This document shows positions 2,931-64,000 of a stretch of 64,000 nt of DNA, piece after piece (within the stretch, counting starts at the first letter, position 1; every line of letters begins with the position of its first letter). Made by a program: the position numbers and the translations under genes. This DNA is from Geosiphon pyriformis uo1 (Eukaryota; Fungi; Glomeromycota), in NCBI GenBank assembly GCA_016748015.1, contig JAAOMT010000570.1:376043-440042 (forward strand), given 5' to 3'. Under the pieces are notes generated by a model. The model was not told the DNA's origin and searched no databases. It was given only the letters and a program-made list of their open reading frames with translations.

Positions 2931-3504
2931 TCATTCTCTCCAAAGAGATTAAGCTCTGGTGAAATTAAGCTATTTATGGTGTAATCTATTGAAAGGGTTT
3001 TATCTAATTCAAAGTTAACTAGTTTGTTAAAGTCTTTTGTCGATAAAGTATATAACACTTGAGACAAAATGAGTTTTGTATCCAGGAGACCAAATCTTTG
3101 TATTAGAGTTTTGGTTTTTTTAGCAATAGTTAAAACTTTTAAGACATCTAACTGTATAATGCCCAAAATTTCTGCCTGTATTTCTGAAGTTGTTTTCTTC
3201 ATGAGTTTTATATCCTCTATGATTTTACCAAGACAACCATAGAGTTCTAATTGCCTTCCATATCACAAGTTTTTGTCTATGAGTAAAATTTCTTGAAGTG
3301 TTTTTCCAATTGTGTTGGAAAGTAGGAGTATAGCTGCTATTATACTTTCCAACAGATATTTATTCATTTTATTACTAATTCTTTTTTTTCTAATAGTGGT
3401 TTTTTTTGGTCTAATAACAGTATGTGTTTCACTGTTATCAGTTATGGTGGTTTGTTTTCCAATAGTTAGAGTAATATTTGGATAGTTTTTGATCCAATAC
3501 TCAT
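2900..3504 (-). pseudogene. A1 accessory ORF3 (env position, unknown function)
   Basis: Homologous to 56442-57047; reads through the PPT into the LTR. Confidence 0.8.
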
Positions 3505-10177: not shown

Positions 10178-10459
10178 ACAATAGGAAACAAGATATATTT
10201 TGACAACCTCACAGGGAGCACCACTTTTATGTTACGAGTTGGAGTAATAAGCTAATGGATAGCAAGGAAGAACAGAATTGTAGGGTGATGGAAATAATCA
10301 AAGAAAATTCAACTTCAAAAAGCGAATTAAATAAGTATGAATTTAATGTGTGAGATCAGTCTCATAAAATATCTCAGTCGCTGTTACTCATAGAATATAA
10401 GAAATATAATATTATTAGTCAGTAGATATTAGCCAATCAGAAGTAGGCATAGTAAATAT

Positions 10460-10632
10460 GGAATTCCAGGATTCCTCTCAGGAATTGCAGGATTTCAGGA
10501 ATTTCAGGATTCCTCAACAAGGAATTGTAGGATTCCAGAATTCTAGAATTCCTCTCAAAGGAATCGCAGGATTCCAGAATTCCAGGATTCCTCTCAAAGA
10601 AATTGCAGGATTCCAGGAATTCTAGGATTTTT
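10460..10632 (+). repeat. Tandem GGAATTCCA/GGATTCC-type array in LTR C
   Basis: Repeated ggaattgcaggattcca(g)gaattcc units; also at about 36220-36352. Confidence 0.8.
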
Positions 10633-12972
10633 GTCATAAAAAATTGAGAAATTAAGGAATCTTAATTATGTATATATAGCAGTAGGATTAGAAGCTAAAA
10701 AGACAAACCTCTCAGTTTTAAATTTAATCTAAGCAACATTTCAGTTTCCAATCATTAAATAAATAATTATTCCATATCTCAACCCACTCTCTACTATCAA
10801 CACTTCATGTTGATAGTAATTAATACTTAACCACACTGGAACAATAGCTCTTGATCATGGCTATTGACAAGATATTAACATACCAAATTGCCTTGGCTTA
10901 TTTTCTCTATTTTCTTTATTTTATTTTCTTTATTTTTTATTTTCTTTATTTTATTTTATTTTATTTTTGATTTTGTTGTTGTATACTAATTGATTAAAAG
11001 ATTAAGTACTGAGTTATTGATGTCAAGGATAGCCTGGTAAAAGACCCAGAAATAAGGGTAGGATTTTATATATATTATCAGATAGTTTACCAAAAGGGCA
11101 AGACTGCCAGACTAAATCTGGCCACCATGTTAAGAAAAAAATTGGGAAAACTCTTGGAAAGATATATCTACTATCGACACTATCGAATCTCTGTCCATTA
11201 TACAAAGAACTCCATCAAAACCTTCAGATACAACACTTGCAGAACCCCATCCACAGAAGTAGCTTTTGAGCACTGAGTTATGAGTTTATTATTTAATTCA
11301 ACAGCAGAAATAATTACCTGTTGTTACGGGATGGTTTTCTTGTTATATTTAATTGCTGATATCCCACTTTAATTGCAATCAGTCTTTCGTGAGTTCCTCA
11401 GTTCTATTTGTGTGATAATGTTACTGTTACACTGAAGGCTTTCTTTTTATTGTTGCGATGTAAGTTATTCTTTAATTCTTGATTGTTGTGTGTGTTTATG
11501 TACTCCTTTTCAGAGGCTGAACTGAAATCTACCCACTGTTTGGGGTCTTCTCTAAGGCTATCCTTGCAATTGCCTGATGTGTTTTTCTAATCTAGAAACA
11601 CAGAATGTTAATGGTCTTTAGTGCTTTTCTAATTCTCACAATAAAGCTTTTATCAATTAGTAATAACGTGAATAATCTTGATCAAGAATTATTCTTCCAA
11701 GGGATTCAGTTGATGAATGATAGTTTCATTCAATAAATAATACAAGTAAGTTTCTTAATACTTTGGGTTGTGATAGTTCAGTTTTAAATATTTTTTTTCA
11801 TTTCTTTTTGATTTTAAAGGTTTCTTGGGATATTTAATTTGAAAGTATGATTTAAAGTGGAGTTTGTTGAATAAAATTGGATCTATTGCTTGATAAGTTA
11901 TGATTTTTATTACTTGATTGATTATTTCCCAATATTAAAACTACTGTATATATACATGTTTGTAGTTCTACGAGAAAATACTTTCTTTTTGATATTTCAA
12001 CCTGGTGTTTGCTGCTATCACCAGTTGGTGTTGGCTGCTATTGTGAACTGGTGCTTGCCACTATCGCGAGATGGTGTTTGCTACTATGTTAATCATTACC
12101 TTTCTAAGATTATTACTGTGCTATATTATGATTGAATAGTTTGTATTATTTTTATGATTCTTTTTTCTAAATTCTTAAACTGTAACATTATCCCCTCCTT
12201 TCAAGATTGAGCTCTGTCGAAATCGAAGTTAATTTCTTCATTAAATTCTAAGTTACTATAGTGGTTCAATACTGTGTTATTAATTTGTTGTTGTAATTCT
12301 TGAAATTGCGAGTTGGTAAGTCATCCAATACTGTTGGTTGTTATTATGTTTATGGTTGNNNNNNNNNNNNNNNNNNNNNNNNNNNNNNNNNNNNNNNNNN
12401 NNNNNNNNNNNNNNNNNNNNNNNNNNNNNNNNNNNNNNNNNNNNNNNNNNNNNNNNNNNNNNNNNNNNNNNNNNNNNNNNNNNNNNNNNNNNNNNNGTCA
12501 AAGTGAACACAACTCCAGACTACTGCTAAGCATTCAAGTTCATGTGCTGCGTAGTTTTGTTCTGCCGTACTGAGACTTTTGCTGGCATAAGCGATTACAC
12601 GTTCTCTTCCATTATCATCTTTTTGTGACAGAATGGCTCCAAGTCTAGTTCCAGAGGCATCTGTGGCCAAAATGAATTTCTTGTTGAAATTCGGATAGAT
12701 CATTATTGGTGATTCAATGAGCTTTTGTCTAAGGTACTCAAAAGCTTTTTGTTGTGCTTCAGTTCATTTAAACTTCACATTTTTAGATAGTGGGTAATTA
12801 AGGGGTTTGGCGATGTTTGAAAAGTTTTCTACAAAGTGGCGGTAGTAAGATGCGAGTCCTAAAAAGCTTCTAACTTCTGAAACGTTTCAAGGTACTGGAA
12901 AATTTTTCACTTTGTCTATTTTTGATGGATCTGGTTTTATTCCATCTTTTCCNNNNNNNNNNNNNNNNNNNN

Positions 12973-14263: not shown

Positions 14264-17200
14264 CATCTGTGGCCAAAATGAATTTCTTGTTGAAATTCGG
14301 ATAGATCATTATTGGTGATTCAATGAGCTTTTGTCTAAGGTACTCAAAAGCTTTTTGTTGTGCTTCAGTTCATTTAAACTTCACATTTTTAGATAGTGGG
14401 TAATTAAGGGGTTTGGCGATGTTTGAAAAGTTTTCTACAAAGCGGCGGTAGTAAGATGCGAATCCTAAAAAGCTTCTAACTTCTGAAACGTTTCAAGGTA
14501 CTGGAAAATTTTTCACTTTGTCTATTTTTGATGGATCTGGTTTTATTCCATCTTTTCCAACTACGTGTCCTAAAAATGCTAGCTCATTTTTCCCAAAGAA
14601 ACATTTTTCTAGATTTAGTTTAAGTCCAGCGTGTCTCAATCTCTCAAAAACTTGTTGTAAATATTGGAGATGATCCGTGAATTTTGACGAGAAAACATTT
14701 GTATTATCCAAGTAGACAACAACGAATTGCCACAGGATTCCGGAGTAAATTACGTCCATTAGTCTTTGGAATGTTGCGGGAGCATTTGTTAATCCAAATG
14801 GCATTACATTGAACTCATAATTGCCATTTTGTGTTGTGAATGCTGTTTTATGCCTGTCCTTTGGGTCCATTTCCACTTGCCAGTACCCACTAGTCAAGTC
14901 CAGTGTAGAAAACCATTTTGCTCCTCCAAAAACGTCGAAGATTTCGTCAATTAACGGTATTGGGTATGAGTCTTTGGTTGTTTTGCTGTTTAGTTTGTGA
15001 TAGTCGACGCAAAATCTAATTTTTCCGTTCTTTTTCCTTACTAAAACAACTGGTGAGGACCATGGGCTCATTGATAGTTGTATTATTCCTTTTTCCAACA
15101 TGCTTTGGACTTCTTTTCTAATAAAATTATGCTCCATTGGTGGGACACAGTAAGCGCGTTGTTTTTCAGGTCTGGCGTCTCCAGTGGGGATTTGGTGTTG
15201 AACCAAGTTGGTTCTTCCAAATTCGCCATTTCTTGAAAATATATCAGAGTATTTTAAAATTAATGCTTTTAATTGTCGCTGTTGGTCGGGATCCATTGTT
15301 CCAATGTTTAATTTGGCCAATTCTTCTGGTGTAAATTGATAGCATTCTACTGGTTGTTGCCAATTTATTGAAGTGAGTTCACAATAGAGAGCGATTTTTG
15401 GGAAATTTAGAATTTCTTGTGGTGTTGATGCGTTTTCTAGCTCCGTTCCGAGATATCCAATGATGGTATCTTCCGGAATGTAGACGGGTTCTTCTGTGGT
15501 GTTTGCGATAGAAATTTTTATCCATTGAGCTTTATCAGCTGGAATAAAAAGATTAGTAAGTCCTATGAGAAACTGTTGGCAAGTTTCTGGGTAGGGCTCA
15601 AATATTAGGTCTTTTTCTTTAATTGTCCTTTTTATTCTTATTTCTGATTTTCCATATGGTAAGAGCGTGATGGACTGCTCATTTTTAATTACTTCGTCTT
15701 TTTCCTCTATTATTTCAGCGAAATTCGCTTCAATTCCTTTTTCTGTCGATCCGAAACCAAAAGTTTTTCTCGTTGTTTGTGACAATTCCTCACAATTTTC
15801 CACTGGCACAAATTTCCAGTGTATCTGGAGTCAATTACTCCTCCTTGAATGCTTATTCCTTTTTTCGCGAGGCTTGATCGCGACACCATTTGAACCATTA
15901 TTCCTGGCGGAATTTCAACCGCTATTTTTAGGTCGATTTTGGTGATGCTCCTGGGTGGTAACATTGTGGATTGGTCTTCCGGATAACGTAGATCGAATCC
16001 GGTGTCAGTTGGATGGGCTCTTTCAGGTATTATTCCTAAGTGCCCATTGTCGAAGTATCGAATGTCGGTCACCTGTTCTAGGTCGGTATAGGCTACAAAT
16101 TTTTCTGACTTGGGACCGTCAGGTGAGTCTTGTTGATTTATTGATTGATTTTGAGACTGCTGATTCTCAATTTCCATTTTTTTTTCTAAGTCTTTTTCGT
16201 CTTGACACTCTTCACAGCACTGACTTTGGCATGGAATGAGACAGTTTTCGCAGAGGTAAGTGTTGATTTGGGTGAGGTATTGTTCTTGTTCTTGTCGAGT
16301 GGAGCATAGTTGTTGGTAGTAGTCCTGGATTTTGTCCACTGGGTCAAACATGTTGTAGCTGGCGACTTCGTCGGCTACTTCGGCTGACTCTTTCCAACGT
16401 TGTATTTCTTTGGCGGTTCCTTCTCTTACTTTGGCTTGTGTGGTGTTGTACAACTCGTCCTCGTCGTGTGGGTAGTGCTGTAGTCTTTTTAACGCTCTGT
16501 TGAACGCTGCTTCGAATGGCATTCCTCCTCTTACCCAGTCACAGATGAGGATCATGTATTGGCAAGTTGCGTCACACGTTCCTCCTCTGCCTGGTAAGTC
16601 GTTCCAGTCGCACTCTCTTGGTAACGGTTCTCCACAAGCGAGGCACGGTTCCTCGTCCCATTTTCCATGTCTTTTTGGGTAACCGTATTTTTCTTTGTTA
16701 CAACGGTTACAATAGTAGTGGGTGGGGTTTCTTGGGTCTTCGTCCGGTGTGCTGCACGCAGTGATAGACGAGAGTTTCTTCTTGCAAACTGAGCATTCTA
16801 GCTTTGGTCTGCGCCGCTGGTGGTTTCTTCGTGAACTTACCTGGTTCCATTCGGATCTTTCTTCGCTGGTCCACATTGGTATGGCTGGTAGTTCTGTTCT
16901 TTGGTCATCAGCCCAAGAGAGCTAATAGGTTTCGATGGCTAGTAGTGCTGGATTTTCCTCAAATTCGAAGATAGGTCTTTGGTTGGCGCTGGATTTTTGG
17001 AAGTGGCCACAGGTGGCTGGAATTTTGGCCTGGTGGCCATTATAATTGATCAGAAGCTCTTGGGTGGTCCAGTCTAGGGTGGTGTTGGCTTTTGTTAGCC
17101 AGTCATTCCCTACTAACACTTGATATTGTGTAGTGTCCATTACTAATACTTTTGTAGGTATTACTATGCCGTTAATTTCGAAAGGAAATGAGTTGATTTC

Positions 17201-19513: not shown

Positions 19514-19576
19514 TTTTGTCTTTTCCTTTTTAGCAATGAATTATTGCTAATTATTATTTCCTTTTTGATTTTCTTT

Positions 19577-19593
19577 CCTCGTAGGGTTCACCA
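19577..19593 (-). other. Primer binding site of B (TGGTGAACCCTACGAGG)
   Basis: TGG-initiated 17-mer, 2 nt from the 5' LTR end. Confidence 0.8.
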
Positions 19594-20471
19594 AATGTTA
19601 CGGGATGGTTTTCTTATTATATTTAATTGCTGATATCCCACTTTAATTGCAATCAGTCTTTCGTGAGTTCCTCAGTTCTATTTGTGTGATAATGTCACTG
19701 TTACACTGAAGGCTTTCTTTTTACTGTTGCGATGTAAGTTATTCTTTAATTCTTGATTGTTATGTGTGTTTATGTACTCCTTTTCAGAGGCTGAACTGAA
19801 ATCTACCCACTGTCTGGGGTCTTCTCTGAGGCTATCCTTGCAATTGCCTGATGTGTTTCTCTAATCTAAAAACACAGAATGTTAATGGTCTTTAGTGCTT
19901 TTCTAATTCTCACAATAAAGCTTTTATCAATTAGTAACAACGTGAATAATCTTGATCAAGGATTATTCTTCCAAGGGATTCAGTTGATGAATGATAGTTT
20001 CATTCAATAAATAATACAAGTAAGTTTCTTAATACTTTGGGTTGTGATAGTTCAGTTTTAAATATTCTTTTTCATTTCTTTTTGATTTTAAAGGTTTCTT
20101 GGGATATTTAATTTGAAAGTATGATTTAAAGTGGAGTTTGTTGGATAAAATTGGATCTATTGCTTGATAAGTTATGATTTTTATTACTTGATTGATTATT
20201 TCCCAATATTAAAACTACTGTATATATACATGTTTGTAGTTCTATGAGAAAATACTTTCTTTTTGATATTTCAACCTGGTGTTTGCTGCTATCACCAGTT
20301 GGTGTTGGCTGCTATTGTGAACTGGTGCTTGCTACTATCGCGAGATGGTGTTTGCTACTATGTTAATCATTACCTTTCTAAGATTATTACTGTGCTATAT
20401 TATGATTGAATAGTTTGTATTATTTTTATGATTCTTTTTTCTAAATTCTTAAACTGTAACACTGTAATATT

Positions 20472-20488
20472 TGGTGCTCCCTGTGAGG
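20472..20488 (+). other. Primer binding site of C, complementary to the elongator tRNA-Met 3' end
   Basis: TGGTGCTCCCTGTGAGG, identical to the family A PBS; complement CCUCACAGGGAGCACCA resembles eukaryotic elongator tRNA-Met 3' ends. Confidence 0.8.
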
Positions 20489-21649
20489 TATAATCCTATA
20501 GAGAACCAGCACCAACAAACACCATCCAAAAATGGCAGAATCAGAAAATATAGGAGCAAACCATTTAGGATTTGCAAAATTCTTATTTCAACACTATTGT
20601 TAACACTTGGAATTAAACCACAATCATATATCCACTGAATCAGCCTTCAATTTTTATGTCAACAAAAAGATTTCCTCTTTATTAAAAACACCAGTGAATA
20701 CTGAATCAGCAAGAGAAACTTTCTATAGGGAGTTAATTCACAACACCAACCTGCCAACAAATCATAATTTCGCATCTATCATCACTGAGATCAACAAGGA
20801 AATTAAACACCACATTCAACAAAGATATTCAATTATATATGCTAATAAAAGCAAGGGAAAACTACAAACACCAGCAGTAACATCCAGAAAAATACAGCCA
20901 TCTACTTGGAAGAAAAACAGAATTGAATCCCCAAGCAACCCATCCTACCACTATACACCTGAAAGTGCCATCAACATATTGTTACAGTTGAAACACATAG
21001 TTTTTATTAATTATCACATGTATTAGCCACTGATGTCATATAATTAGCCACCCTATTTTTAGATAGTGATCGTTGACCACTTTAGATAGCTATATAAGCG
21101 ATAATTCTCTTAGCTGTAAAAAAACATGATTAAAGTAATGAAATAAACAATATCAATTACTTCCTCTCATAATTGCTTATTCCCCTTTCCTTACCTTCAA
21201 GTATCTATTTGTTGGCATTCACATACCTTATCTTTTCCCCTTCTTGATTTGTATTTGTTAGAATTAGCCTAAGAAGCAATTGGCTTGCTCTTGTAATTCA
21301 TTGAATAAAGAAATGATTAAAAAGCACAATGATACCTGTTATTGATTTTAAGAATCGCTGAGTTGAGGCATAGAATAATAGCAGCAGTGTTATCTTGTTG
21401 ACAATTATGGACTATTCCTCTACCTTCAGATTTAAGAAAAGATTAGCAACTGTGATTTTTATGAGACTGATCACACACATTGAATTCCTACTTATTCAAT
21501 TTGCTCCCTTATTGTAATTCCTTCTTTGTTTATTTCCATCACCCTACAATACTGTTCTCTCTTGCTATCCATTAGCTTGTTACTCCAACCCGTAACATAA
21601 AAGTGGTGCTCCCTGTGAGGTTGTCAAAATTCACTTATTCCCTCATTGT

Positions 21650-30500: not shown

Positions 30501-31768
30501 ACATATGTGTACCAGCCATGTGTGGCCATTTCAAGACTTTTCCAAAAGAGAAACTATTGATCAAACTAGAGAAGGAGAAAGAGAAACCTACCTGAAAAGC
30601 TTATCAAGTCTCCTGGGCTGACACTGACCACAACAAACTACCACTGATACTCTCGTGGAATGACAACCTTAAGGGAAAGCAAAAAGAAGAACTGATCTGA
30701 GAAACAGACAATTTGACCTGAACTAACAACGAACAGGAAAAACCATTGAGTTGGGAGTGGAAAGAAGAAAAAGGAAAAGGGAAAGAAAGGGAGGAAAAAA
30801 ACACTCAAGCCAACAACACTTATATTCTATACACCAATGGTCAACAATGATCATCGATTTATTGCCAACCCAAACTGATATGCATTGATTGCAGCAAAAA
30901 ATTGTCGTCAATGAGCGCATGCTGTGGCGACGATGAAGAATATCAGACAGCAACCAAGTTCTATTCTCGCACATGCCATGTCAAATGTTTTGGAAGACCA
31001 AAACGAATGGGAAAATGGGATAATACACCATGTATAGCCTGTAGAAAAACTCTTCTTGACAAAGGAATGTAGAACAACATTCTGGGGAGAGGAGGAACAT
31101 GCGATATGTTCTGCCAATACATGATCCTCATTAGCGACTGGTTTAAGAAAAGAACACTCATAGAAGCTGCCTAGAGAAAAGCTGTACAGCAACTGAACAG
31201 TTGTCCACATGACGACGACAAAATTTGGAGGATAGCAATCACCAAAATTGAAGGCACATCACTAGAAGAAATTAGGACAATTAAAAACAACCCACTAGAA
31301 CCCATTGAACTTGACTGGGATACAGAGCCAGTCATAAATTTTCTGGAACCAGAAGAGTTCCATGAACACTATCAAAACTTGGCACTCACTAAAGAAGAGC
31401 AAGAACAATGGCTAACACAGTTAAATACTAGACTGTATTACCATTGTTTAATTCCCACTGACTTTGAATATTGTAATGATTGTGATCTTATTTACAATTC
31501 ACCACCATGCATGATCTACATGATCCCTAAAGAAGAAGAACCAATCAACAGCTGTGCTTTGGAATTAGAATCACTGATCAAGCGCAATCCAGACTCTGAC
31601 AATGACGACAAAAACACTGGTTCCAGCTCTATTTAAAATAACAATAACAACAAAGACAATTCAAACTCAGATTCAAACTCTAATTTAAACTATGAACAAT
31701 ACATTGCACTACCAGATCTCTCCAAAGAACAAGAGTTGAAATAGTATAATAACAATGGGGAAGGTATT

Positions 31769-32165
31769 ATGCCAGAACGTGTGCATGATACTGATGCAGG
31801 GTTTGATCTAAAGTATCCAGGAAAAGAGGCCATCAAATTGGAACCACATTCACGCACCTACATTGATCTGAAAGTAACACTAGAAATTCTGGCAACAACA
31901 ATGGTTCAATTAGCATCTAAGAGTAGTTTAGCAAAAAGAGGGATTAATATAAGAGGAGAAATAATTGATGTGGGATATGTAAAAAATATCATTGCTATGC
32001 TACAAAATGACTTAGAAAAAGCCTATATAATAGAGCCAAACAAAAAGATAACACAGGCAATATTTTTACCTTTGGTTAAAATAGCTCAGTTAGTACCAGT
32101 GGGAAATAAAAAAGAGTTAGGAATAACAGCAAAAGGGATACAGGGATTTGGGTCAATGGGTAGAA
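31769..32165 (+). pseudogene. dUTPase domain of element C
   Basis: All five trimeric dUTPase motifs recognisable: AGFDL, SKSSLA, IIDVGY, KITQAI, KGIQGFGSMG. Confidence 0.9.
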
Positions 32166-34062
32166 TAGATGTACCAGTTAATATGGTGAAGGAAGAAATT
32201 GTTGGCCAAGAAGAAATTATCTCAACTGGTCAAGCTATTTCCATTTCACTATATAACCAGTACATGCTAGCAATAGAAAGAAAAGAAAAAGACCAAGCAC
32301 AAATTTTTGAAGCAGAAGCCAGTCTTTGTGAATTAGGAGAAGTTGGACTTATCAATCTCCACATATCAGCAAAAAATTACAGCCACATCAAAATTCTCAT
32401 CTACAACAATACAGAAAATGTTATAAAAATACCAGCCGGAACTATTATTGGATACTTAAATACTGAAATGGAGGATCAACTACCAAACCCCATTCCAAAC
32501 TTTCCACAACTTTATAGATATGTCAATATCACATTACAAACAATATACGGACGAAGTGAATGTTATTTGCTCCAACCAGAACAATTAGAACAAATGAACA
32601 TGGGAAACTTAGATCCACTCCAACGTATGCAATTCAAGATGTTGCTCAACCAGTTCAATAACATCTTTGCCAGCGAAAATGAGTTTGGCCAAACTGACAT
32701 CATCTAGCATCAGATCAAAACTGGAGATGCAATGTCAATTAAACAAAGAGCATACAGAGTGCCACCAGTCAGCCATAAGATTATTTGTCAAGAGATAAAC
32801 TGAATGCTTGACAATGAGCTAATTCAGCCATCAATGAGCTCATGGTCATCACCAGTGGTACTTGTTTGCAAGAAAAATGGAAAGATCTGATTTTGTGTGG
32901 ACTACAGAAAACTCAATGGTGTAACTCATGGAGACAGCTATCCAACTCCACGGATACAAGAATTATTCAATGCTTTTGGCGGAAACAAATGGCTTTCAAT
33001 GTTAGACTTAGATAGTGGTTACTGACAAGTAGCCATGGATCTAGCTGACAAAGAGAAGACAGCATTCATCATGAGAGAAAGGAATTTTGAATTTGAAGTA
33101 ATGTCATTTGGTTTAACCAATACATCAGCCACTTTCCAATGGCTAATGGAAATTGTCTATACTGGCTTATTGTGGAAATCAGTAGTTGTATACTTGGACA
33201 ACACCAATGTATTTTCAAAAACATTTGATGATCATCTTCATCATCTTCAACAAGTGTTCGAAAGACTAAGAAGAGCAGGGCTAAAGTTAAATGCAACAAA
33301 GTGCTTCTTTGGCAAGACAGAGCTAAAATTCTTAAGACACATAGTCAGCAAAGATAGTATCAAAACAGATCCAAAGAAAATAGAGATAGTAAAGAACTTT
33401 CCAGTGCCGACCAATATGACAGAACTGAAATTATTCTTGGGATTTGCCAGCTACTATCAACATTTTATCAAGAACTTTTCCAAGATAGTGCAGCCACTTA
33501 ACCAACTGCAAACCAAGAATACCAAATATGAATGAGCAGAAAGTTAACAAGAAGCTTTTGACATTTTAAAAAGAAAGCTCATTTAAGCTTCAGTACTGAT
33601 TTATCCAGATCACAGCAAACCATTCATCATCACCACCGATGTATCTGGCCAAGTATTGGGAGCAGTATTATCTCAGAGAGGACTAGACGGCAGAGAACAT
33701 CCAGTAGCATATGCCAGCAGAGATTTAACACCAGCCGAAAAGAACTATGGAACACCGGAACAAGAACACTTAGCAATATACTGAGCAGTCATAAAATAGA
33801 AAAAATACTTGAGCCAGAAGTTTGAAGTATACACAGATCACAAAGGATTAACATCACTCCAAAAACAAAAATTTGAAGATAGAAGACAGTCAAAATAGAA
33901 AATGGCATTCGCACTATACAATTATACTATACATTACAAAAAAAGAAAAGACAACAGAAATGCTGATGGTTTGTCGCGAATGAGACAAATCTAAGAACAT
34001 TTCAACACAAAAAAAAAAATATAACAAAACCAGAACAATACTAACGAAAAATATAACAAAAG

Positions 34063-36128: not shown

Positions 36129-37615
36129 AAAGAGGGAATAATATTATTCATAGAATATAGGAAATATAATATTATTAGTCAATAGATATTAGCCAATCAA
36201 AAGTAGGCGTAGTAAATGTGGAATTCCAGAATTCCTCTCAGGAATTGCAAGATTCCAGAAATTTCAGGATTCCCTGACAAGGAATTGCAGGATTCCAGAA
36301 TTCCAAGATTCCTCTCAAAGGAATTGCAGGATTCCAGGAATTCCAAGATTCCTGTCGTAAAGAATTGAGGAATTGAGGAATCTCAATTATGTATATATAG
36401 CAGTAGGATTAGAAGCTGAAAAGACAGATCTCTTAGTTTTAGATTTAATCTAAGCAACATTCCAGTTTCTAATCATCAAATAAATAATTATTCCATATCT
36501 CAACCCACTTTTTACTATCAACATGAAGTGTTGATAGTAATTGATACTTAACTACACTGGAACAATAACTCTTAATCATGGCTATTGATGAGATATTAAC
36601 ATACCAAATTGCCTTGGCTTATTTTCTCTATTTTTTTTATTTTATTTTTTTTATTTTTTATTTTCTTTATTTTATTTTCTTTCTTTTTTGATTTTGTTGT
36701 TGTATACTAATTGATTAAAAAATTAAGCACTGAATTATTGACGTCAAGGATAGCCTGGTAAAAAACCCAGAAATAAGGGTAAGATTTTATATATATTATC
36801 AGATAGCTTACCAGAAGACCATGACTGTCAGACTAAATCCAGCCACCACACTGAGAAAGAAATTGGAAAAACTCTTGGAAAGATACATCTACTATCAACA
36901 CTATTGAATCTCTGTCCATTATACAAAGGACTCCATTAAAACCTTCAGATACAACACTTGCAAAACTCCATCCACAGAAGTAGCTTTTGAGCACCGAATT
37001 ACGGGTTTGTTATTTAATTCAACAGCAGAAATAATCACCTGTAATATCACTATACTTTTCAAGAATAACCAGAGGATCTGAAGGTAAAGGAATAGTCTGT
37101 ACTGTTAACAAATGATCATACCTGGTACAATTTCTATGTCTTATGTTGGCATTCTTAGAATTTAATATCAAGTATTAGATGTACTCTTCAGTTACATTTT
37201 ATTCAATAATATTCAAATGCTGCAATTACACGTTTCAGGAAAAGGGTAGGAAATAATCAACAAGTAATCTTTTATCTTTAAGATGTTCAGATACTTGAAA
37301 GTAGGGAAAGGGAAATTAGTGATAAGAAAGAAATTGAGATGAAAGTTTTTATTTTTATTTATTTGATTTTCTTGATTTTTTCATTTTTCATACTTTTCTA
37401 CAGTTTAAGAGATTTATCACTTATATAGCTATCAAAAGTGGTTAATTATTAAGTCAACAACTAGGTCAATAATCAGATTAATAATCAGGTCAACAGTTAG
37501 GTCATTGATCAGATCAATGATTACTTACTAAAAATAGAGTGGCTAATTTATATAATATTAATGGTTAATACATGTGATAATTAATAAGAAATATAAGTTT
37601 CAACTGTAACAATAC

Positions 37616-56441: not shown

Positions 56442-57047
56442 ATGAGTACTGGAATCAAGAACTATCCAAATGCTACTCTGACTATCGGAAAACAAACCAC
56501 TATAACAGACAACAGTGAAACTCACACTGTTATTAGACCAAAAAAAACAACTACCAGAAGAGAAAGAAATCGTAGCAAAATGGATAAATACCTGCTGGAA
56601 AGCATAACAGCAGCAATACTTTCACCTTCCAGCACAATTGGAAAAACAATACAAGAAATCTTGCCCATAGACAAAAACTTGTCATATGGAAGACAACTAG
56701 AACTCTATGGTCGTCTTGGTGAAATCATAGAAGACATGAAGCTCATGAAGAAAACAACTTCAGAGATACAATTGGAAATTTTGGGCATTATATGATTGGA
56801 TGTCCCAAGAGTTTTGACCATTGCTAGAAGAGCCAGAACTCTAATACAAAGATTTGGTCTCTTGGATACAAAGCTTATTTCGCCTCAAGTACTATATACT
56901 CTATCCACAAAAGACTTCAACAAACTAGTTAGTTTTGAGTTAGACAAAACCCTTCACATAGACTATCTCATAAATAGTTTGATTTCGCCAGAGCTCAATC
57001 TCTTTGGAGAGGATGATGTTATGGTTGAAAAACATAGTTTTTATTAA
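56442..57047 (+). pseudogene. A3 accessory ORF3 (about 201 aa, one CGA>TGA stop)
   Basis: ORFs 56424-56795 and 56796-57047 are contiguous in frame; the A2 copy has CGA at the stop position. Confidence 0.85.
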
Positions 57048-58039: not shown

Positions 58040-58224
58040 AACATACCAACATTATTACTTCTACTCTTCACTATCTCATAAATGTTGGGTGTACTTAATA
58101 GGCCTCTCTTAAATTTGGTATCAATACCCACTGACTTTTTCCACTCAGTTTGTAATTTGCAATGTTCTCTCCACAATCTATTCCTTGCTTGAGTTACAGC
58201 CCATTTACAGACCTTAATTAATAT
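58040..58224 (-). mobile_element. Second LINE ORF2 C-terminal remnant
   Basis: ILIKVCKWAVTQARNRLWREHCKLQTEWKKSVGIDTKFKR resembles the W..(R/H)C....EW...GI tail of fungal non-LTR ORF2. Confidence 0.5.
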
Positions 58225-58919
58225 TGTTATGGTTGAAACCCATAATTTTTATTAGTTATTACATGTATTAGCCACTAATGTTATATAATTAGCCACTCTA
58301 TTTTTAGATAGTAATCATTGACCTAGTCATTGACTTGGTCATTGACCACTTTCATTAGCTATATAAGCAATGAGTTTCTTAGCAATAGAAAATCATCTCT
58401 CAGACAAAAATCAAATAAATAAAAATAACAACTTTCATCTCAATCACTCTCTTATTGCTAATTTCCCTTTCTCTACCTTCAAGTATCCAAACATCTTAGG
58501 ATAAAAGATTACTTGTTGGCCTTTTCCTGATGTATATAATTGTAGCATTTGAAGATTATTTAAATAAATGTGACTGAAAAGCACAAGTTGATATCTGATA
58601 TTGAATTCTAAGAGTGCTGACGTGAGGCATAGAATTATACCAGTGGTGATCAATTGTTGACAGTACAGACTATCCCTCTACCTTCAGATTTCCCAGTTAT
58701 CTTTGAAAAGAATAGTAACTGAGATATTTTATGAGACTGATCTTGCATATTGAATCCATACTCATTCAATTCGCTCTTTAAAGTTGAATTCCCCTTTGAT
58801 TATTTCCATCACCCTACAATCCTGTTCTCTCTTGCTATCCATTAGCTTGTTACTCCAACCCGTAACATAAAAGTGGTGCTCCCTGTGAGGTTGTCAAAAT
58901 TCACTTATTCCTTCATTGT

Positions 58920-60476
58920 ATGGGTGATTACTCATATCTGCCACAGCAATCAGAAGAACACTTTGCAGCACACAACAGAAATGACCTAGATTTCATTGAA
59001 CTTAATCCTCTGCCCTCCTGTTTGATCTGCTTTCCCATTGAAGAACAATCTAGCAGACAATTCCAAGACTTTTGGAACTGGTTCCTGAATGAGCATTCAG
59101 CTGAAACCTACACAACTTATACAACTTATTACTTTGATCAAGCTTATTTTGAAGACAACTTTGAAGAAAGAAACAACAGTATCAATCAGCTCTTATATTC
59201 TACAACCTTTGAACAACAGCCCCCTGATTTCGAATATCTAAATCATCAAATCCACATTTGGATTGCTGCCCATCAATCAACAGTAACTCCCCTTGAAACA
59301 GAAGAAGAAAGCTACCAAACAGCACCTATTTTTGATCTCTTCTTAAGTGAATCAGAGCACTCCACACAAACAGTAACTCCTGAACCAATGGCCCAAGATC
59401 CAATGCAAGTAAACATCCTGGCCACCCTCCAAGGCATACAAACTGCTTTGGGACGAAGAAACAACACCCCACTACCCCTATTCAGAGGTAATGCCCAAGA
59501 TCCAATTGAATGGTTGGACGATTTTGAAAGAGCAGCCACTACAAACCAGTATGATAATGAATACAAGTTCCAAATCATTGGTGGCTACCTCCAAGGCTCC
59601 CCTGCTACCTGGTTTTCACAAGAAACCAATGCTGGTGCTCAACAAAGAATTGTTAGATGGACCCCAGCAAATATTGGAGAAAACAATACCTCTTTCACTA
59701 TCCAGTTTGAAAACAAATTCAGAACCCCCATCTTAATATCCAAATGGCATATGGAATTAGAAAGAAGAACCCAAGGTCCTGGTGAAATTGTGACCAAATA
59801 TGCCAAAGCAATCAGAAAACTCATCAAGTGTGTAGACTCTGGTAGAAACTGGACTGAAGAGCAAAAGATCCACTCCTTCACAAAAAGATTGAGAACTGAC
59901 TTATCTTATGCTCTTTGGCCTCTCTTGGCTCTGAAAAACAACCTTACAATGAATATGGCTATTGAACTCACCCAAAGAATTGAAGATAACCAAAGGATGC
60001 ATCTGGGATCCACACTTCCAGTTTTTGCTTCTGCTCCTGTCATGGCTCCTGCTCCTCAAGTGGCTGCTACTTCTTTTGCTGCCCAAACCCAAGACCCAAA
60101 TGAACAATTGATAGATAGACTCACAGCTAATCTTGCCTGGTTATTAGAACTGTTGGCACAAGCAGTCAGAGATAATCAGCAACCACCAAGATCTAAATAT
60201 AAACCTTGTTTTAACCAGCCCCAGCAACCTCCCTATCAAAGACAGCAAAATCGTGGCCCACCTGTGTGCTATTGTTGTGGATTAACTGGACATTATTCAA
60301 GAGATTGTAACAATCCTCCACTGCCTCCTCCAGCTCCCAGAAACAATGACAACCAAAACAACAGACTCAACAACAACAACAATGTCCCCAATCAAAGACC
60401 CAATCATGCCAACATCAATTTCTTTGGAGAGAATCCCCTAGTTGAAGCCACTGTTTATCAGCCTTTAAACTGGTAG
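58920..60476 (+). CDS. A4 Gag (intact 518-aa ORF): N-terminal extension, capsid, CCHC nucleocapsid
   Basis: FRGNAQDPIEWLDDFE capsid motif, QGPGE..YAK major-homology-like region, CYCCGLTGHYSRDC knuckle. Confidence 0.9.
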   Translation: MGDYSYLPQQSEEHFAAHNRNDLDFIELNPLPSCLICFPIEEQSSRQFQDFWNWFLNEHSAETYTTYTTYYFDQAYFEDNFEERNNSINQLLYSTTFEQQPPDFEYLNHQIHIWIAAHQSTVTPLETEEESYQTAPIFDLFLSESEHSTQTVTPEPMAQDPMQVNILATLQGIQTALGRRNNTPLPLFRGNAQDPIEWLDDFERAATTNQYDNEYKFQIIGGYLQGSPATWFSQETNAGAQQRIVRWTPANIGENNTSFTIQFENKFRTPILISKWHMELERRTQGPGEIVTKYAKAIRKLIKCVDSGRNWTEEQKIHSFTKRLRTDLSYALWPLLALKNNLTMNMAIELTQRIEDNQRMHLGSTLPVFASAPVMAPAPQVAATSFAAQTQDPNEQLIDRLTANLAWLLELLAQAVRDNQQPPRSKYKPCFNQPQQPPYQRQQNRGPPVCYCCGLTGHYSRDCNNPPLPPPAPRNNDNQNNRLNNNNNVPNQRPNHANINFFGENPLVEATVYQPLNW

Positions 60477-60512
60477 GCACACCTCCAAAGGGTGAGAGTG
60501 CAAGCCAACCAG
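60464..60512 (+). other. Putative -1 ribosomal frameshift site (U UUA AAC plus stem-loop)
   Basis: In-frame heptamer just before the gag stop; the -1 frame is open into protease; present in all four A copies. Confidence 0.8.
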
Positions 60513-63163
60513 AAGAAAACTCTTTTTACGCTTTTAACTTAACTGATGATGACCATGACCATGACATGGATGAACTAGCAATCAACACCTTAGAACCAAC
60601 CAGAAAGAAGAAGAAAGCCAAGGTTGATTTCGTTCTAGACCCCAACAAAGCCTCAACTTCTGCCGCTGATAACAATGAGCCACCAAAGGCTAAAGTTTTT
60701 AAGAATCCTCCAAAGTTGGAACCCCCAGAAATTGTACAAAAATCTGGACCCTATTCCATTGTCAAAGATCTCATGGAAACCCCAGCACATATTACCTTTG
60801 GCCAGCTGATGACTCATCCACAGTTCAGAAAGGATCTTCACAAATCCTTGATTCCAAAGAAGAAGACACCAAAAACCCACAAGCACCCTCACCAAGTTGG
60901 ACTTGCTGACAACAGCAATGTCACCCCTCTGATTTGTAAAGCCCAAGTGGCTGGATACTTCATTGACTTAATTATGGACAGTGGATCATCTGTTAGTGTT
61001 ATTGCCAAACACTTCTTGGAAGCAATTGGTAGAAAGATTGATGAACCTTCCACTAGACCAATGACCAATGTACATGGTGACAAAAAGAAAGGACTGGGTA
61101 TTGCCAAAGCTGTTCCTGTTCGTATCAATGGAATCAGCATTGAAACTGACATGGAAGTTTCTAAAGCCAAGGAATACACTATCATTGTTGGCAATGAATG
61201 GCTCAAGAAAGCAAAAGCTTTGCTTGATTATGAACTTTGTGAATTAACCATCAGATGTGGTGAAAAACCCATTGTGGTTAAGTGTCACTATTGGACAACT
61301 CCCCCAGTACCCAAACAAAACCAAGAAGAAGAACAATCAGATGAATCAGATGATGAAGAGAGCAATAAAGAAGAAGAATAAGAAAAGCAAGAAGAAACTG
61401 CTGAACTCGTCTATACCACCTTCACCAGCAATGGCAAACCACTGGACAATATTAAAGCAGACAAAGAAGGAATCATTGTAAATGGCAAGCTGATCTGCTG
61501 GCCTTATTATGATATTCTTAGAAGAATCTTTGAAAGAAAACCTGGCAAGAAAGCCAAATACAGTTTTTGGTGGCATGGTCCTTGTGTCTGGTGTTGGTGC
61601 AACAAACCCTTGTATTCTCCAAGTGATGAATGCAAATCATGCCTGATCTATTACAGAGATTGGGAACCAATCAGTTTGATACCCAGAGAAGAATTGAAAG
61701 AAGTACAGAAGTCCTTTGAGAATAAACCACCTGAGATCCAATCACTGGCTGTAGAACAAAAAGAACTCTCCCCAGAAGAAAGAAAAATAGACATTGAAAA
61801 TTTGCTGGCTAGAAATAGCCCAGTTATTTCCAAAGAAGGTGATACCCCTGGACGTACCCATGTGATACAACACACCATCACCACCAGAGAAATTTGATCT
61901 ATCCATTTGAAGCCTTATCAATCCAATCAGCACAATGATGAGTTTATTAAGAAAAAGATAAACCGGATGAAAGAACTTGGATTCATACAAGAAACCAAGA
62001 GTGAATGGGCTTTTTCAGTTGTAGTGGTATCCAAGAAAGATGGAACACTACACTTCTGTGTCAACTACTGCCAATTAAATGCCATCACTGAAAGAGACAT
62101 GTACCCATTTCCCAAGATTGATGCAATGTTAGACCAATTCAAAGATGCTGCTTTCTTCTCAACCATTGACTTAACTGCTGAATTCTGGCAAGTAGAGATG
62201 GATCCAGAAAGCAGAAAGAAAACTGCCTTCATCACCAAGTATGGCACCTATGAATTCACAGTCATACTTTTTGGTCTCACCAACGCCCCTCCTATCTTTC
62301 AATGCTTAATGGATAAAGTATTTGAATCAGTTAAGGAAAACTTTGTTCTAGTCTATTTGGATGACATAATGGTATACTCAAAAACCTGGGATGAACACCT
62401 GGAACATTTGCAAAAGGTTTTTGACCTCCTCAGAAATGCTGGCCTCAAGATCAACCCAATCAAATCTTTCTTTGGAAGACAATCCACCCAGTTCCTTGGT
62501 CATCTTATCACAAAAGATAGAATCTTTCCTGATCCAGCCAAAGTTGAAAAAGTCCAAAACATCAAACAACCAATGAACATTCATGAACTATGCTCTTTTC
62601 TTGGTTTGGCCTCTTATTATCACAAATTTGTCAAGGATTTCTCCAAAATCGCCTCTCCTCTCAATCAGCTACTCAGGAAAAATGTCAATTACCATTGGGG
62701 AACACATCAACAAAAAGCCTTTGAAACTTTAAAGAAAAAACTGGTTACAGAACCCATCCTCAAGCAACCTAATCTAGATCGACCCTTTATCCTCCACATT
62801 GATGCATCTGGCTTTGGACTTGGTGCTGTTTTCTCCCAGAAAGATGAAAATGGCAAGGAACATGCTATAGTCTATGTCAGTAAAACTCTTTCCCCAGCAG
62901 AACAGAACTATTCAGTTACTGAACAAGAATGCTTAGCAGTAGTATGGTCCACCAGTTACTGGAGTAAGTATCTTCTTGGTGTGAAGCTTTTGGTAGTAAC
63001 AGATCACCAAGCTTTGGTTTGGCTGCACAACAAAAAGAGGCTAAAACACAAATGGATAACTCACTGAATACTCCACTTGGATGAATTCGACTATAATATT
63101 CAACATCACAAAGGAGCTAATCATCAAAATGCTGATGCTCTCTCCAGACTTACCATCCAGTGA
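60464..63163 (+). pseudogene. A4 pol (PR-RT-RNase H)
   Basis: MDSGS, YLDD, EQECLAVVW, DALSRLTIQ*; a few in-frame stops. Confidence 0.92.
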
Positions 63164-63229
63164 CAGAACAACCCTCTTAAACCAAACCAACTTAATTATT
63201 AGTAATTCCTCTTTTTGACAAACATGATA

Positions 63230-64000
63230 ATGGACTTGGACAACTACTCTGCCTTAATGGAATTTTTGGGTAAAGGACAATACCCACTGAAATACACATG
63301 ACAACAAAGAGAACAATTGTGCAAACAATCAAATTTCTATTTGATCCACCAGAACCAATTATATAAAAGATCTTGACCGCCCCCAGAGAGTCATCAGATT
63401 TGAAGAAAAAGAAATTGTGATCTACAATATGCACACTGATCCATTAGCTGGACACTTTGGAAAAACAAAAACAATTCAGAAAACTCTAGCTCGCTATTAT
63501 TGGCCTACCTTGGAAAAAGACATTGCTGAATACATCAAAACCTGTGATATCTGCCAAAGAAGAGGAAAACCCAATCGCAAAGAAGATATCCATCCAATCT
63601 CTGTTGGTCAACCCTTTGACAGAATTGGTATAGATGTTGTTGGACCTTTAACAATAACTCCTGATGGCAACAAATACATTATCACAGCTACTGACTATCT
63701 TACAAAGTGGGTAGAAGCAAGAGCCACTTCAGACCAAACAGCAGTCTCAATAGCCAATTTCATTTATGAAGATATCATTTGTCACCACGGCTGCTCCAAA
63801 GAACTTTTATCTGACAGAGGAAGAGCTTTTCTCAGTACACTTGTTGAAAAACTTTGCAGAAAAATGGGAATACGTCACAAACTTTCCTCTTCTTATCACC
63901 CCCAAACAAATGGCCTAGTGGAACATTTCAATAGAACACTATGTGAAACCCTAGCCAAAACCAGCAAAGAAACAAACTTATGGGACAAAGTACTGCCTTC
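63230..64000 (+). pseudogene. A4 integrase, partial
   Basis: MDLDNYSALM..., AGHFG...CDICQ, IGIDVVGPL, SDRG. Confidence 0.9.

Follow-up and report, generated by a model that had tools for sequence, protein, structure and literature searches.

The long terminal repeat (LTR) of a Ty3/gypsy element in this DNA, element A, carries two short boxes which, placed end to end, are the complement of the anticodon arm of tRNA-Met(CAU), nt 27-47, as yeast and human tRNA sequences had suggested to the earlier note. Judged by comparison between elements and against shuffled sequence, the boxes are real and chance falls far short of explaining them; a second element replicates them strongly and independently, and a third does so in part. 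They probably form a second docking site for the primer, at which the arm would be opened into two helices and the primer selected or held, with reverse transcriptase (RT) displacing it about 133 nt into synthesis. The window, that is, the whole stretch of 64,000 nt analyzed, lies in the genome of Geosiphon pyriformis, and the coordinates of its features are collected in Table 1.

Table 1. Features of element A and of related elements in the window, with positions counted from the first nucleotide of the window
Feature	Position	Strand	Remarks
5' LTR, element A, alpha subtype	58225..58867	+	643 nt, TG...CA; from self-BLAST; contig loose ends at 58221 and 58867
TATA-like box (putative promoter)	58360..58366	+	common to L024
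First AATAAA past TATA-like box	58414..58419	+	
Box 1	58680..58690	+	complement of tRNA-Met nt 37-47 (3' anticodon stem, variable loop)
Spacer	58691..58728	+	38 nt in alpha
Box 2	58729..58740	+	complement of tRNA-Met nt 27-38 (5' anticodon stem, anticodon loop)
Predicted 6-bp stem	58720..58745	+	58720-58725 with 58740-58745; box 2 in 14-nt loop
PBS, element A	58874..58891	+	18 nt; 6 nt past LTR; fits tRNA-Met(CAU) 3' ends
gag, element A	58920..60476	+	CCHC knuckle at about 60264-60311, under Pfam cut-off
pol remnants (PR-RT-RH-IN), element A	60446..64000	+	broken by stops; rest cut off by window end
Extra ORF, element A	56442-57012; also about 3014-3382	+; -	no Pfam match; L024 counterpart at 1-470
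LTR A, beta subtype	20980-21597	+	
Both boxes, beta LTR	21422..21470	+	
Further intact box pairs in LTR A	28088, 49831, 54626, 57543, 57739; 41115	+; -	
LTR A pieces split by element C	10230-10381 and 37047-37611		
Box 1, 5' LTR of element C	11220..11229	+	98 nt before C PBS, inserted B discounted
Box 1, 3' LTR of element C	36941..36950	+	
PBS, element C	20472-20489	+	identical to that of A
LTR B	19576-19715	-	

Self-BLAST and Pfam searches showed the window to be a nest of Ty3/gypsy LTR elements in AT-rich, CpG-poor DNA (CpG at 0.27 of the expected level). Four LTR families were distinguished, A, B, C, and E, the first of which has an alpha and a beta subtype. Within an old copy of A lies C, which in turn contains B and an A-beta copy, and 4-bp target duplications were found for A-beta and B. 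The insertion point of element C (10382, 37046) falls in the spacer that separates the two boxes of the older LTR A copy. The hallmarks of Ty3/gypsy elements (Metaviridae) were present, comprising TG...CA LTRs, a primer-binding site (PBS), a polypurine tract, and a target-site duplication, and the gene order determined by Pfam, gag followed by PR-RT-RH-IN, was also that of Ty3/gypsy. The best PDB matches of the RT were to Ty3 RT (E 3e-71), while its closest named matches were from Rhizophagus, at about 50%. Downstream of the integrase core, no Pfam match, such as the chromodomain that marks chromoviruses, was obtained in three frames of two (degraded) copies. The N-terminus of the A Gag matched 119 proteins, of which 118 were named Geosiphon pyriformis and one came from the window itself; a search for it in five genomes that had supplied loci found nothing.

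Three phage tRNA-Met(CAU) genes, whose anticodon arm is a different one, have a 3' end to which the PBS is perfectly complementary over its first 17 nt. No tRNA gene with both a PBS-matching end and the arm was found in the viral or prokaryote-genome contigs searched. The whole arm was present in L177, a non-host tRNA-Met gene that is followed by a T run and is therefore eukaryote-like; 14 of its 15 gene-encoded positions pair with the PBS (12 Watson-Crick and 2 G-U). A methionine tRNA is thus the likely primer of element A. The arm complementary to the boxes is, we assume, that of the elongator rather than the initiator tRNA-Met, with base 37 presumably being t6A. Within the window itself, no tRNA gene was called at the standard setting, and none of seven weak Rfam matches was to a tRNA family; the 170 calls returned by ARAGORN at a relaxed threshold with introns allowed were rejected as pure noise. 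As a side observation, the prokaryote-labelled genome records behind L100-L102, L107, L108, L121, L167, and L177 contain large contigs in which gypsy RTs and a tRNA gene of eukaryotic type were found, and which are likely to be eukaryotic contamination.

A sequence search placed both boxes exactly where the earlier note had located them, and the distance from box 2 to the PBS, claimed as about 135 nt, was measured as 133 nt. Their retention in both subtypes of LTR A was likewise borne out. Nine of the 12 LTR A pieces examined span both boxes, eight of these nine are unchanged, and the ninth has 2 + 1 C>T/G>A changes in its boxes. When the 300 nt before the PBS were shuffled with dinucleotides preserved, both boxes occurred in 0 of 20,000 shuffles. 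A two-box scan of viral contigs, with a gap of 0 to 30 nt allowed, returned nine loci, eight of them gapless, and ARAGORN identified all eight gapless loci as tRNA-Met(CAU) (one at a contig edge). Two matches of at least 9 nt were obtained solely with the 8 tRNA genes that bear the arm, out of 31 such genes compared from the loci. Long chance matches do arise among the 186 comparisons made, as illustrated by a 14-nt match between LTR E and a phage tRNA-Gly, which was missing from the other E copy and was taken as chance. A shorter copy of the start of box 1 together with upstream bases was also noted at 58471-58481, about 210 nt upstream of box 1 (7-nt match); it is present in both LTR A subtypes, at about 21193 in beta.

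Conservation of the boxes relative to their flanks was assessed at several levels. Between alpha and beta, none of the 23 box positions differed, compared with 21 of 100 flank positions (Fisher p 0.012). Across 2,741 LTR A contigs from the host run, aligned to 58645-58790, the boxes showed only C>T and G>A changes, at 3 to 14%. No RNA data set was listed among the runs with this sequence, which has no bearing on expression. Variants above 15% were found at 0 of 23 box positions versus 10 of 93 other positions, which was not a significant difference (p 0.21). The boxes contain no CpG and would therefore decay more slowly in any case. The comparison of boxes with flanks called for in the earlier note thus came out in favor of the boxes between the subtypes, and again in the distant element described next, but did not reach significance within the alpha copies.

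Metagenome contigs were scanned with the PBS alone as the query, giving 22 loci, of which only one, L024, was an LTR element. L024 is known from a single 1.5-kb contig and is the sole independent two-box locus. Its cores are the complements of tRNA-Met nt 38-46 and 27-35 (9 + 9 nt), in the same order as in A and 8 nt apart, and its boxes lie 146 nt before its PBS. Each box arose in less than 0.5% of shuffles and both together in 0 of 20,000, while the 21 other loci from the scan had at most 7 nt per box. The LTR of L024 could be aligned with LTR A, its beta subtype, or LTR C no better than 100 shuffles of each. The only other alignable sequence left in it was the TATA-like box, where 11 nt are identical to A. 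At the protein level, the Gag N-terminus was 43% and the extra ORF 26% identical to those of A. Because L024 was found by its PBS alone and has kept the boxes in an unalignable LTR, it lends independent support to extended pairing between primer and template. That part of the earlier proposal is therefore supported, with L024 keeping both boxes and L177 carrying the arm along with a PBS-matching end, whereas the hairpin bridge was not supported as a conserved feature and Ty1 and Ty3 were not the closest analogues. An 11-nt complement of tRNA-Met nt 48-58 was also seen at L024 8-18, which is internal sequence some 460 nt ahead of the LTR; it may be due to chance.

LTR C carries box 1 at both places that had been claimed for it (core nt 38-47; 22 of 20,000 shuffles), with a match of only 5 to 7 nt to box 2. 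Element C therefore has box 1 only, together with the same PBS as A and an RT 44% identical to that of A; in the RT tree it fell in a separate clade from A, with B and E (98/98 support). L024 and C also have a few extra bases ahead of box 1 in common (15 of 17), which the tRNA does not explain. The PBSs of B and E do not fit tRNA-Met (9/15 and 7/15 pairs), and the longest match to either box was 7 nt in B and 6 nt in E. B nevertheless matches tRNA-Met at nt 40-46, 47-56, and 27-33 (7, 10, and 7 nt; the 7 + 7 pair occurred in 372 of 20,000 shuffles), which, given its different PBS, blurs the co-occurrence of boxes and PBS. RT-based searches for further loci returned either no match or distant elements. 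Of the 142 more distant RT loci, 84 were scanned (L035-L041 and L100-L176, leaving out L042-L099, which are whole virus genomes about 30% identical), and none of the 84 had the PBS of A after an LTR or both boxes. In U3 of LTR C, a tandem array of short EcoRI-like repeats was observed upstream of the TATA-like box (10461-10629 and 36220-36350).

The sequence between the boxes was less different between subtypes than the earlier note had held. The spacer was said to differ completely, but the beta spacer proved to be the alpha spacer with a gap of 12 to 13 nt, and the identity of 21 of the 26 aligned positions indicates that the two are homologous. Spacer length was 38 nt in alpha, 26 nt in beta, and 8 nt in L024. 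The hairpin thought to bridge the boxes was indeed the predicted minimum-energy fold in three of five alpha copies, but it was no more stable than shuffles (z scores of -0.30, 0.24, and -1.20). It was rejected as a conserved element, its 5' arm being deleted in beta, where it cannot form, and the hairpin being absent from L024. The predicted 6-bp stem around box 2 contains one compensatory change between alpha and beta, inherited by a subtype, and gives a hint that the first contact with the tRNA might be a loop-loop interaction.

A TATA-like box followed 27 to 87 nt later by AATAAA was found in six of the seven LTRs examined, a motif layout that suggests a short R and would place the boxes in U5. 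Overall, the boxes lie 98 to 194 nt upstream of the PBS, with cores facing tRNA nt 38-46 and 27-35 and a linker of 8, 26, or 38 nt, and the cores common to all lineages leave tRNA nt 36-37 free. With unmodified bases and the crossed topology ignored, the predicted gain on binding of the arm was -20.0 kcal/mol for A, -18.6 for beta, and -21.0 for L024, compared with shuffled means near -4.7 kcal/mol and a lowest shuffled value of -12.6 (60 shuffles each). The gain for LTR C, -12.4, equaled its lowest shuffle. On the same terms, opening nt 27-47 of the PBS-bound tRNA was predicted to cost 3.9 kcal/mol.

In the mechanism that we consider probable, the boxes would be located in the transcribed U5 leader of the element RNA, and the 3' 18 nt of the tRNA would anneal to the PBS first. 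The zinc-knuckle region of Gag would then open the weak anticodon stem, allowing the opened arm to pair with the boxes as two helices of about one turn each, joined by a flexible linker. With the break at nt 36-37, modified base 37 would be left out of the helices and the winding of two full turns avoided. The gain would probably lie in primer selection, packaging, and a stabilized initiation complex. After about 133 nt of minus-strand synthesis RT would need to displace the arm, as it does in HIV-1. A bolder version of this reading is tentative and, in our estimation, doubtful. It holds that a gypsy lineage of the Glomeromycota unzips the whole elongator tRNA-Met arm as a two-helix clamp, with 36 to 39 of the 76 nt paired, and that, owing to the split, two genomic RNAs could be joined by one tRNA, intact or nicked, or the tRNA could serve as a checkpoint that RT has to remove. 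If true, the clamp would be an independent and much stronger version of the disputed anticodon contacts of HIV-1.

Pairing upstream of the PBS in cis crosses the PBS helix and blocks the path of RT, which speaks for an arrangement in which the boxes pair with the primer in trans, a tRNA on the PBS of one RNA linking it as a dimer to the boxes of the second packaged RNA, or at the 3' copy if R spans the boxes, in minus-strand transfer. Drosophila gypsy has a second tRNA-Lys2 site of 11 nt, matching the anticodon and T stems, near the RNA 3' end (PMC1635307), circularization by the primer has been proposed for Ty3 (PMC4974528), and in L024 an AATAAA directly precedes box 1. We nevertheless regard this arrangement as unlikely. 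In A, beta, L024, C, and B, an AATAAA is found 27 to 87 nt past the TATA-like box. The boxes follow only much farther downstream, and this early position of the AATAAA argues for a location of the boxes in U5 and a single copy of them per RNA. In addition, the early tRNA-dimer models for Ty1 and Ty3 were weakened by later work.

It is quite improbable that the boxes bind tRNA halves instead, with box 2 taking the 5' half and box 1 together with the PBS the 3' half, or that they bind a protein, the tRNA match being partly coincidence. The location of the break in the anticodon loop is in keeping with halves, since half-tRNA priming from this very arm is described for copia-type elements (PMC10886601, PMC6317226), and the 15 of 17 bases that L024 and C have in common ahead of box 1 go beyond the tRNA match, as a protein site might. 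Element A, however, is of the gypsy type and has a PBS of the full 18 nt, priming at box 2 would presumably forfeit the U5 end needed for integration, and a protein site could hardly yield two motifs that match adjacent parts of the very tRNA named by the PBS. Half-tRNA priming as in copia and Ty5 was rejected on related grounds, namely the gypsy gene order, the position of box 2 139 nt inside the LTR, and the presence of a PBS for the tRNA 3' end.

The earlier note had offered, as its alternative, a captured pre-tRNA fragment. In this account, an ancestral LTR acquired a copied piece of tRNA-Met, or of a pre-tRNA with its intron, perhaps when RT read through m1A58, and the piece is now functionless. 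The break is compatible with a cut between 37 and 38, where eukaryotic tRNA introns are located (PMC10275265), the alpha spacer read as an intron would end in a purine run able to pair with the anticodon loop, and box 1 ends at modified base 37, a reported stopping point of RT (PMC13191261). Nonetheless a functionless relic is very improbable: in-register tRNA matches outside the boxes number only 4 to 8 of 20, so that there is no tRNA likeness past the boxes; the cores are fixed around spacers of three different lengths and have outlasted the rest of the L024 LTR; and run-on copies would be expected next to the PBS rather than 133 to 194 nt upstream of it. Capture is possible as the origin of the boxes, and it is the lack of function that fails.

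With the docking-site reading retained, the boxes were compared with known systems. On sequence and layout, the closest analogue is HIV-1, not Ty1 or Ty3. In HIV-1 MAL, an A-rich loop pairs with the anticodon stem-loop of tRNA-Lys3, while the variable loop and some of the anticodon stem are bound by a C-rich region (PMC13191261, PMC10730233). The two systems have in common an 18-nt PBS and two upstream sites that face the same parts of the tRNA, in the 5' leader in HIV-1 and probably also in element A. They differ in that the element described here is a fungal Ty3/gypsy element that would use tRNA-Met, with 18 to 21 perfect nt over the whole arm at 133 to 194 nt from the PBS, whereas the loop contact of HIV-1 centers on nt 33-36 and needs modified U34. 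The HIV-1 contacts have been probed and mutated, while the boxes are known from sequence alone, and models of extended pairing in HIV-1 itself conflict (PMC5066621). On this comparison the boxes represent no new class of mechanism and would be an HIV-1-type layout in a longer form.

A further parallel is provided by a tRNA-Lys3-like sequence in U3-R of HIV-1, which, in work of Piekna-Przybylska from 2010, reportedly promotes minus-strand transfer and is centered on nt 38-46, the nucleotides of the box 1 core. The U3-R sequence acts at the RNA 3' end, in contrast to the boxes, which are probably in U5 and have no wider tRNA likeness.

Drosophila gypsy differs from element A in having one site near the 3' end of the RNA, an 11-nt PBS, and a site that is dispensable for cDNA synthesis (PMC1635307). 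Ty1 and Ty3 resemble A in multipartite pairing with a methionine tRNA primer, used in Ty1 for packaging and initiation, but they use the initiator tRNA and a PBS of 8 to 10 nt, and their additional sites, which pair with the T and D arms, follow the PBS on its 3' side in Ty1 and are at the far end of the RNA in Ty3 (PMC4974528, PMC5371799). Boxes of the Ty1 type were rejected for element A, in which both boxes precede an 18-nt PBS and are complementary to nt 27-47. A bipartite PBS of the Ty3 type was also rejected, as A has a full 18-nt PBS and the motif layout would put its boxes in U5, away from the RNA 3' end. The Helenus TRIMs of fungi likewise have tRNA-related sequence within the LTR. 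In Helenus, which is non-autonomous, a complete tRNA-like gene is retained with its A and B promoter boxes, and no link to PBS complementarity is described (PMC10886601), whereas element A has the complement of the anticodon arm only and is of the autonomous type. Further literature around these comparisons is found in PMC6468702, PMC8647823, and PMC11952901.

No description of these boxes was found in the literature searched, although subscription papers, Repbase, and supplements could contain one. The PBS string was absent among the literature matches listed (the best 25 of 677), and the words "primer" and "PBS" were absent from the accounts of transposons of these fungi that were checked. 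Pairing of a primer tRNA with its template outside the PBS has so far been known from few model elements, and the putative contact described here is long, perfect, and visible by comparison alone. The elements form a natural series, since A and L024 have two boxes, C has a single one, and B and E have other PBSs, and the boxes offer a clean in vitro system for the effect of anticodon-arm pairing. U5 would be able to hold primer-specific signals that are missed by annotation of the PBS only, which suggests a simple screen of LTR element collections in which the tRNA named by the PBS is compared with complements in U5.

Several minor features of the elements were also observed. The gap between the LTR end and the PBS was 6 nt in A (58868-58873) and 8 nt in L024 (1228-1235), and 2 nt in B, C, and E; a gap of 6 or 8 nt in the two-box lineage would mean an unusually long end for integrase to trim. 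The gag gene of A begins just 28 nt past the PBS, and its first part (58920-59420) encodes an N-terminal extension of about 170 aa ahead of the capsid-like part, without a Pfam match and with His and Cys residues common to A and L024. The extra ORF of A and L024, which follows integrase and precedes the 3' LTR, is 26% identical between the two over 144 aa (E 7e-10). Elements B and C encode a dUTPase between protease and RT, at 15713-16921 (-) and 31745-32704 (+).
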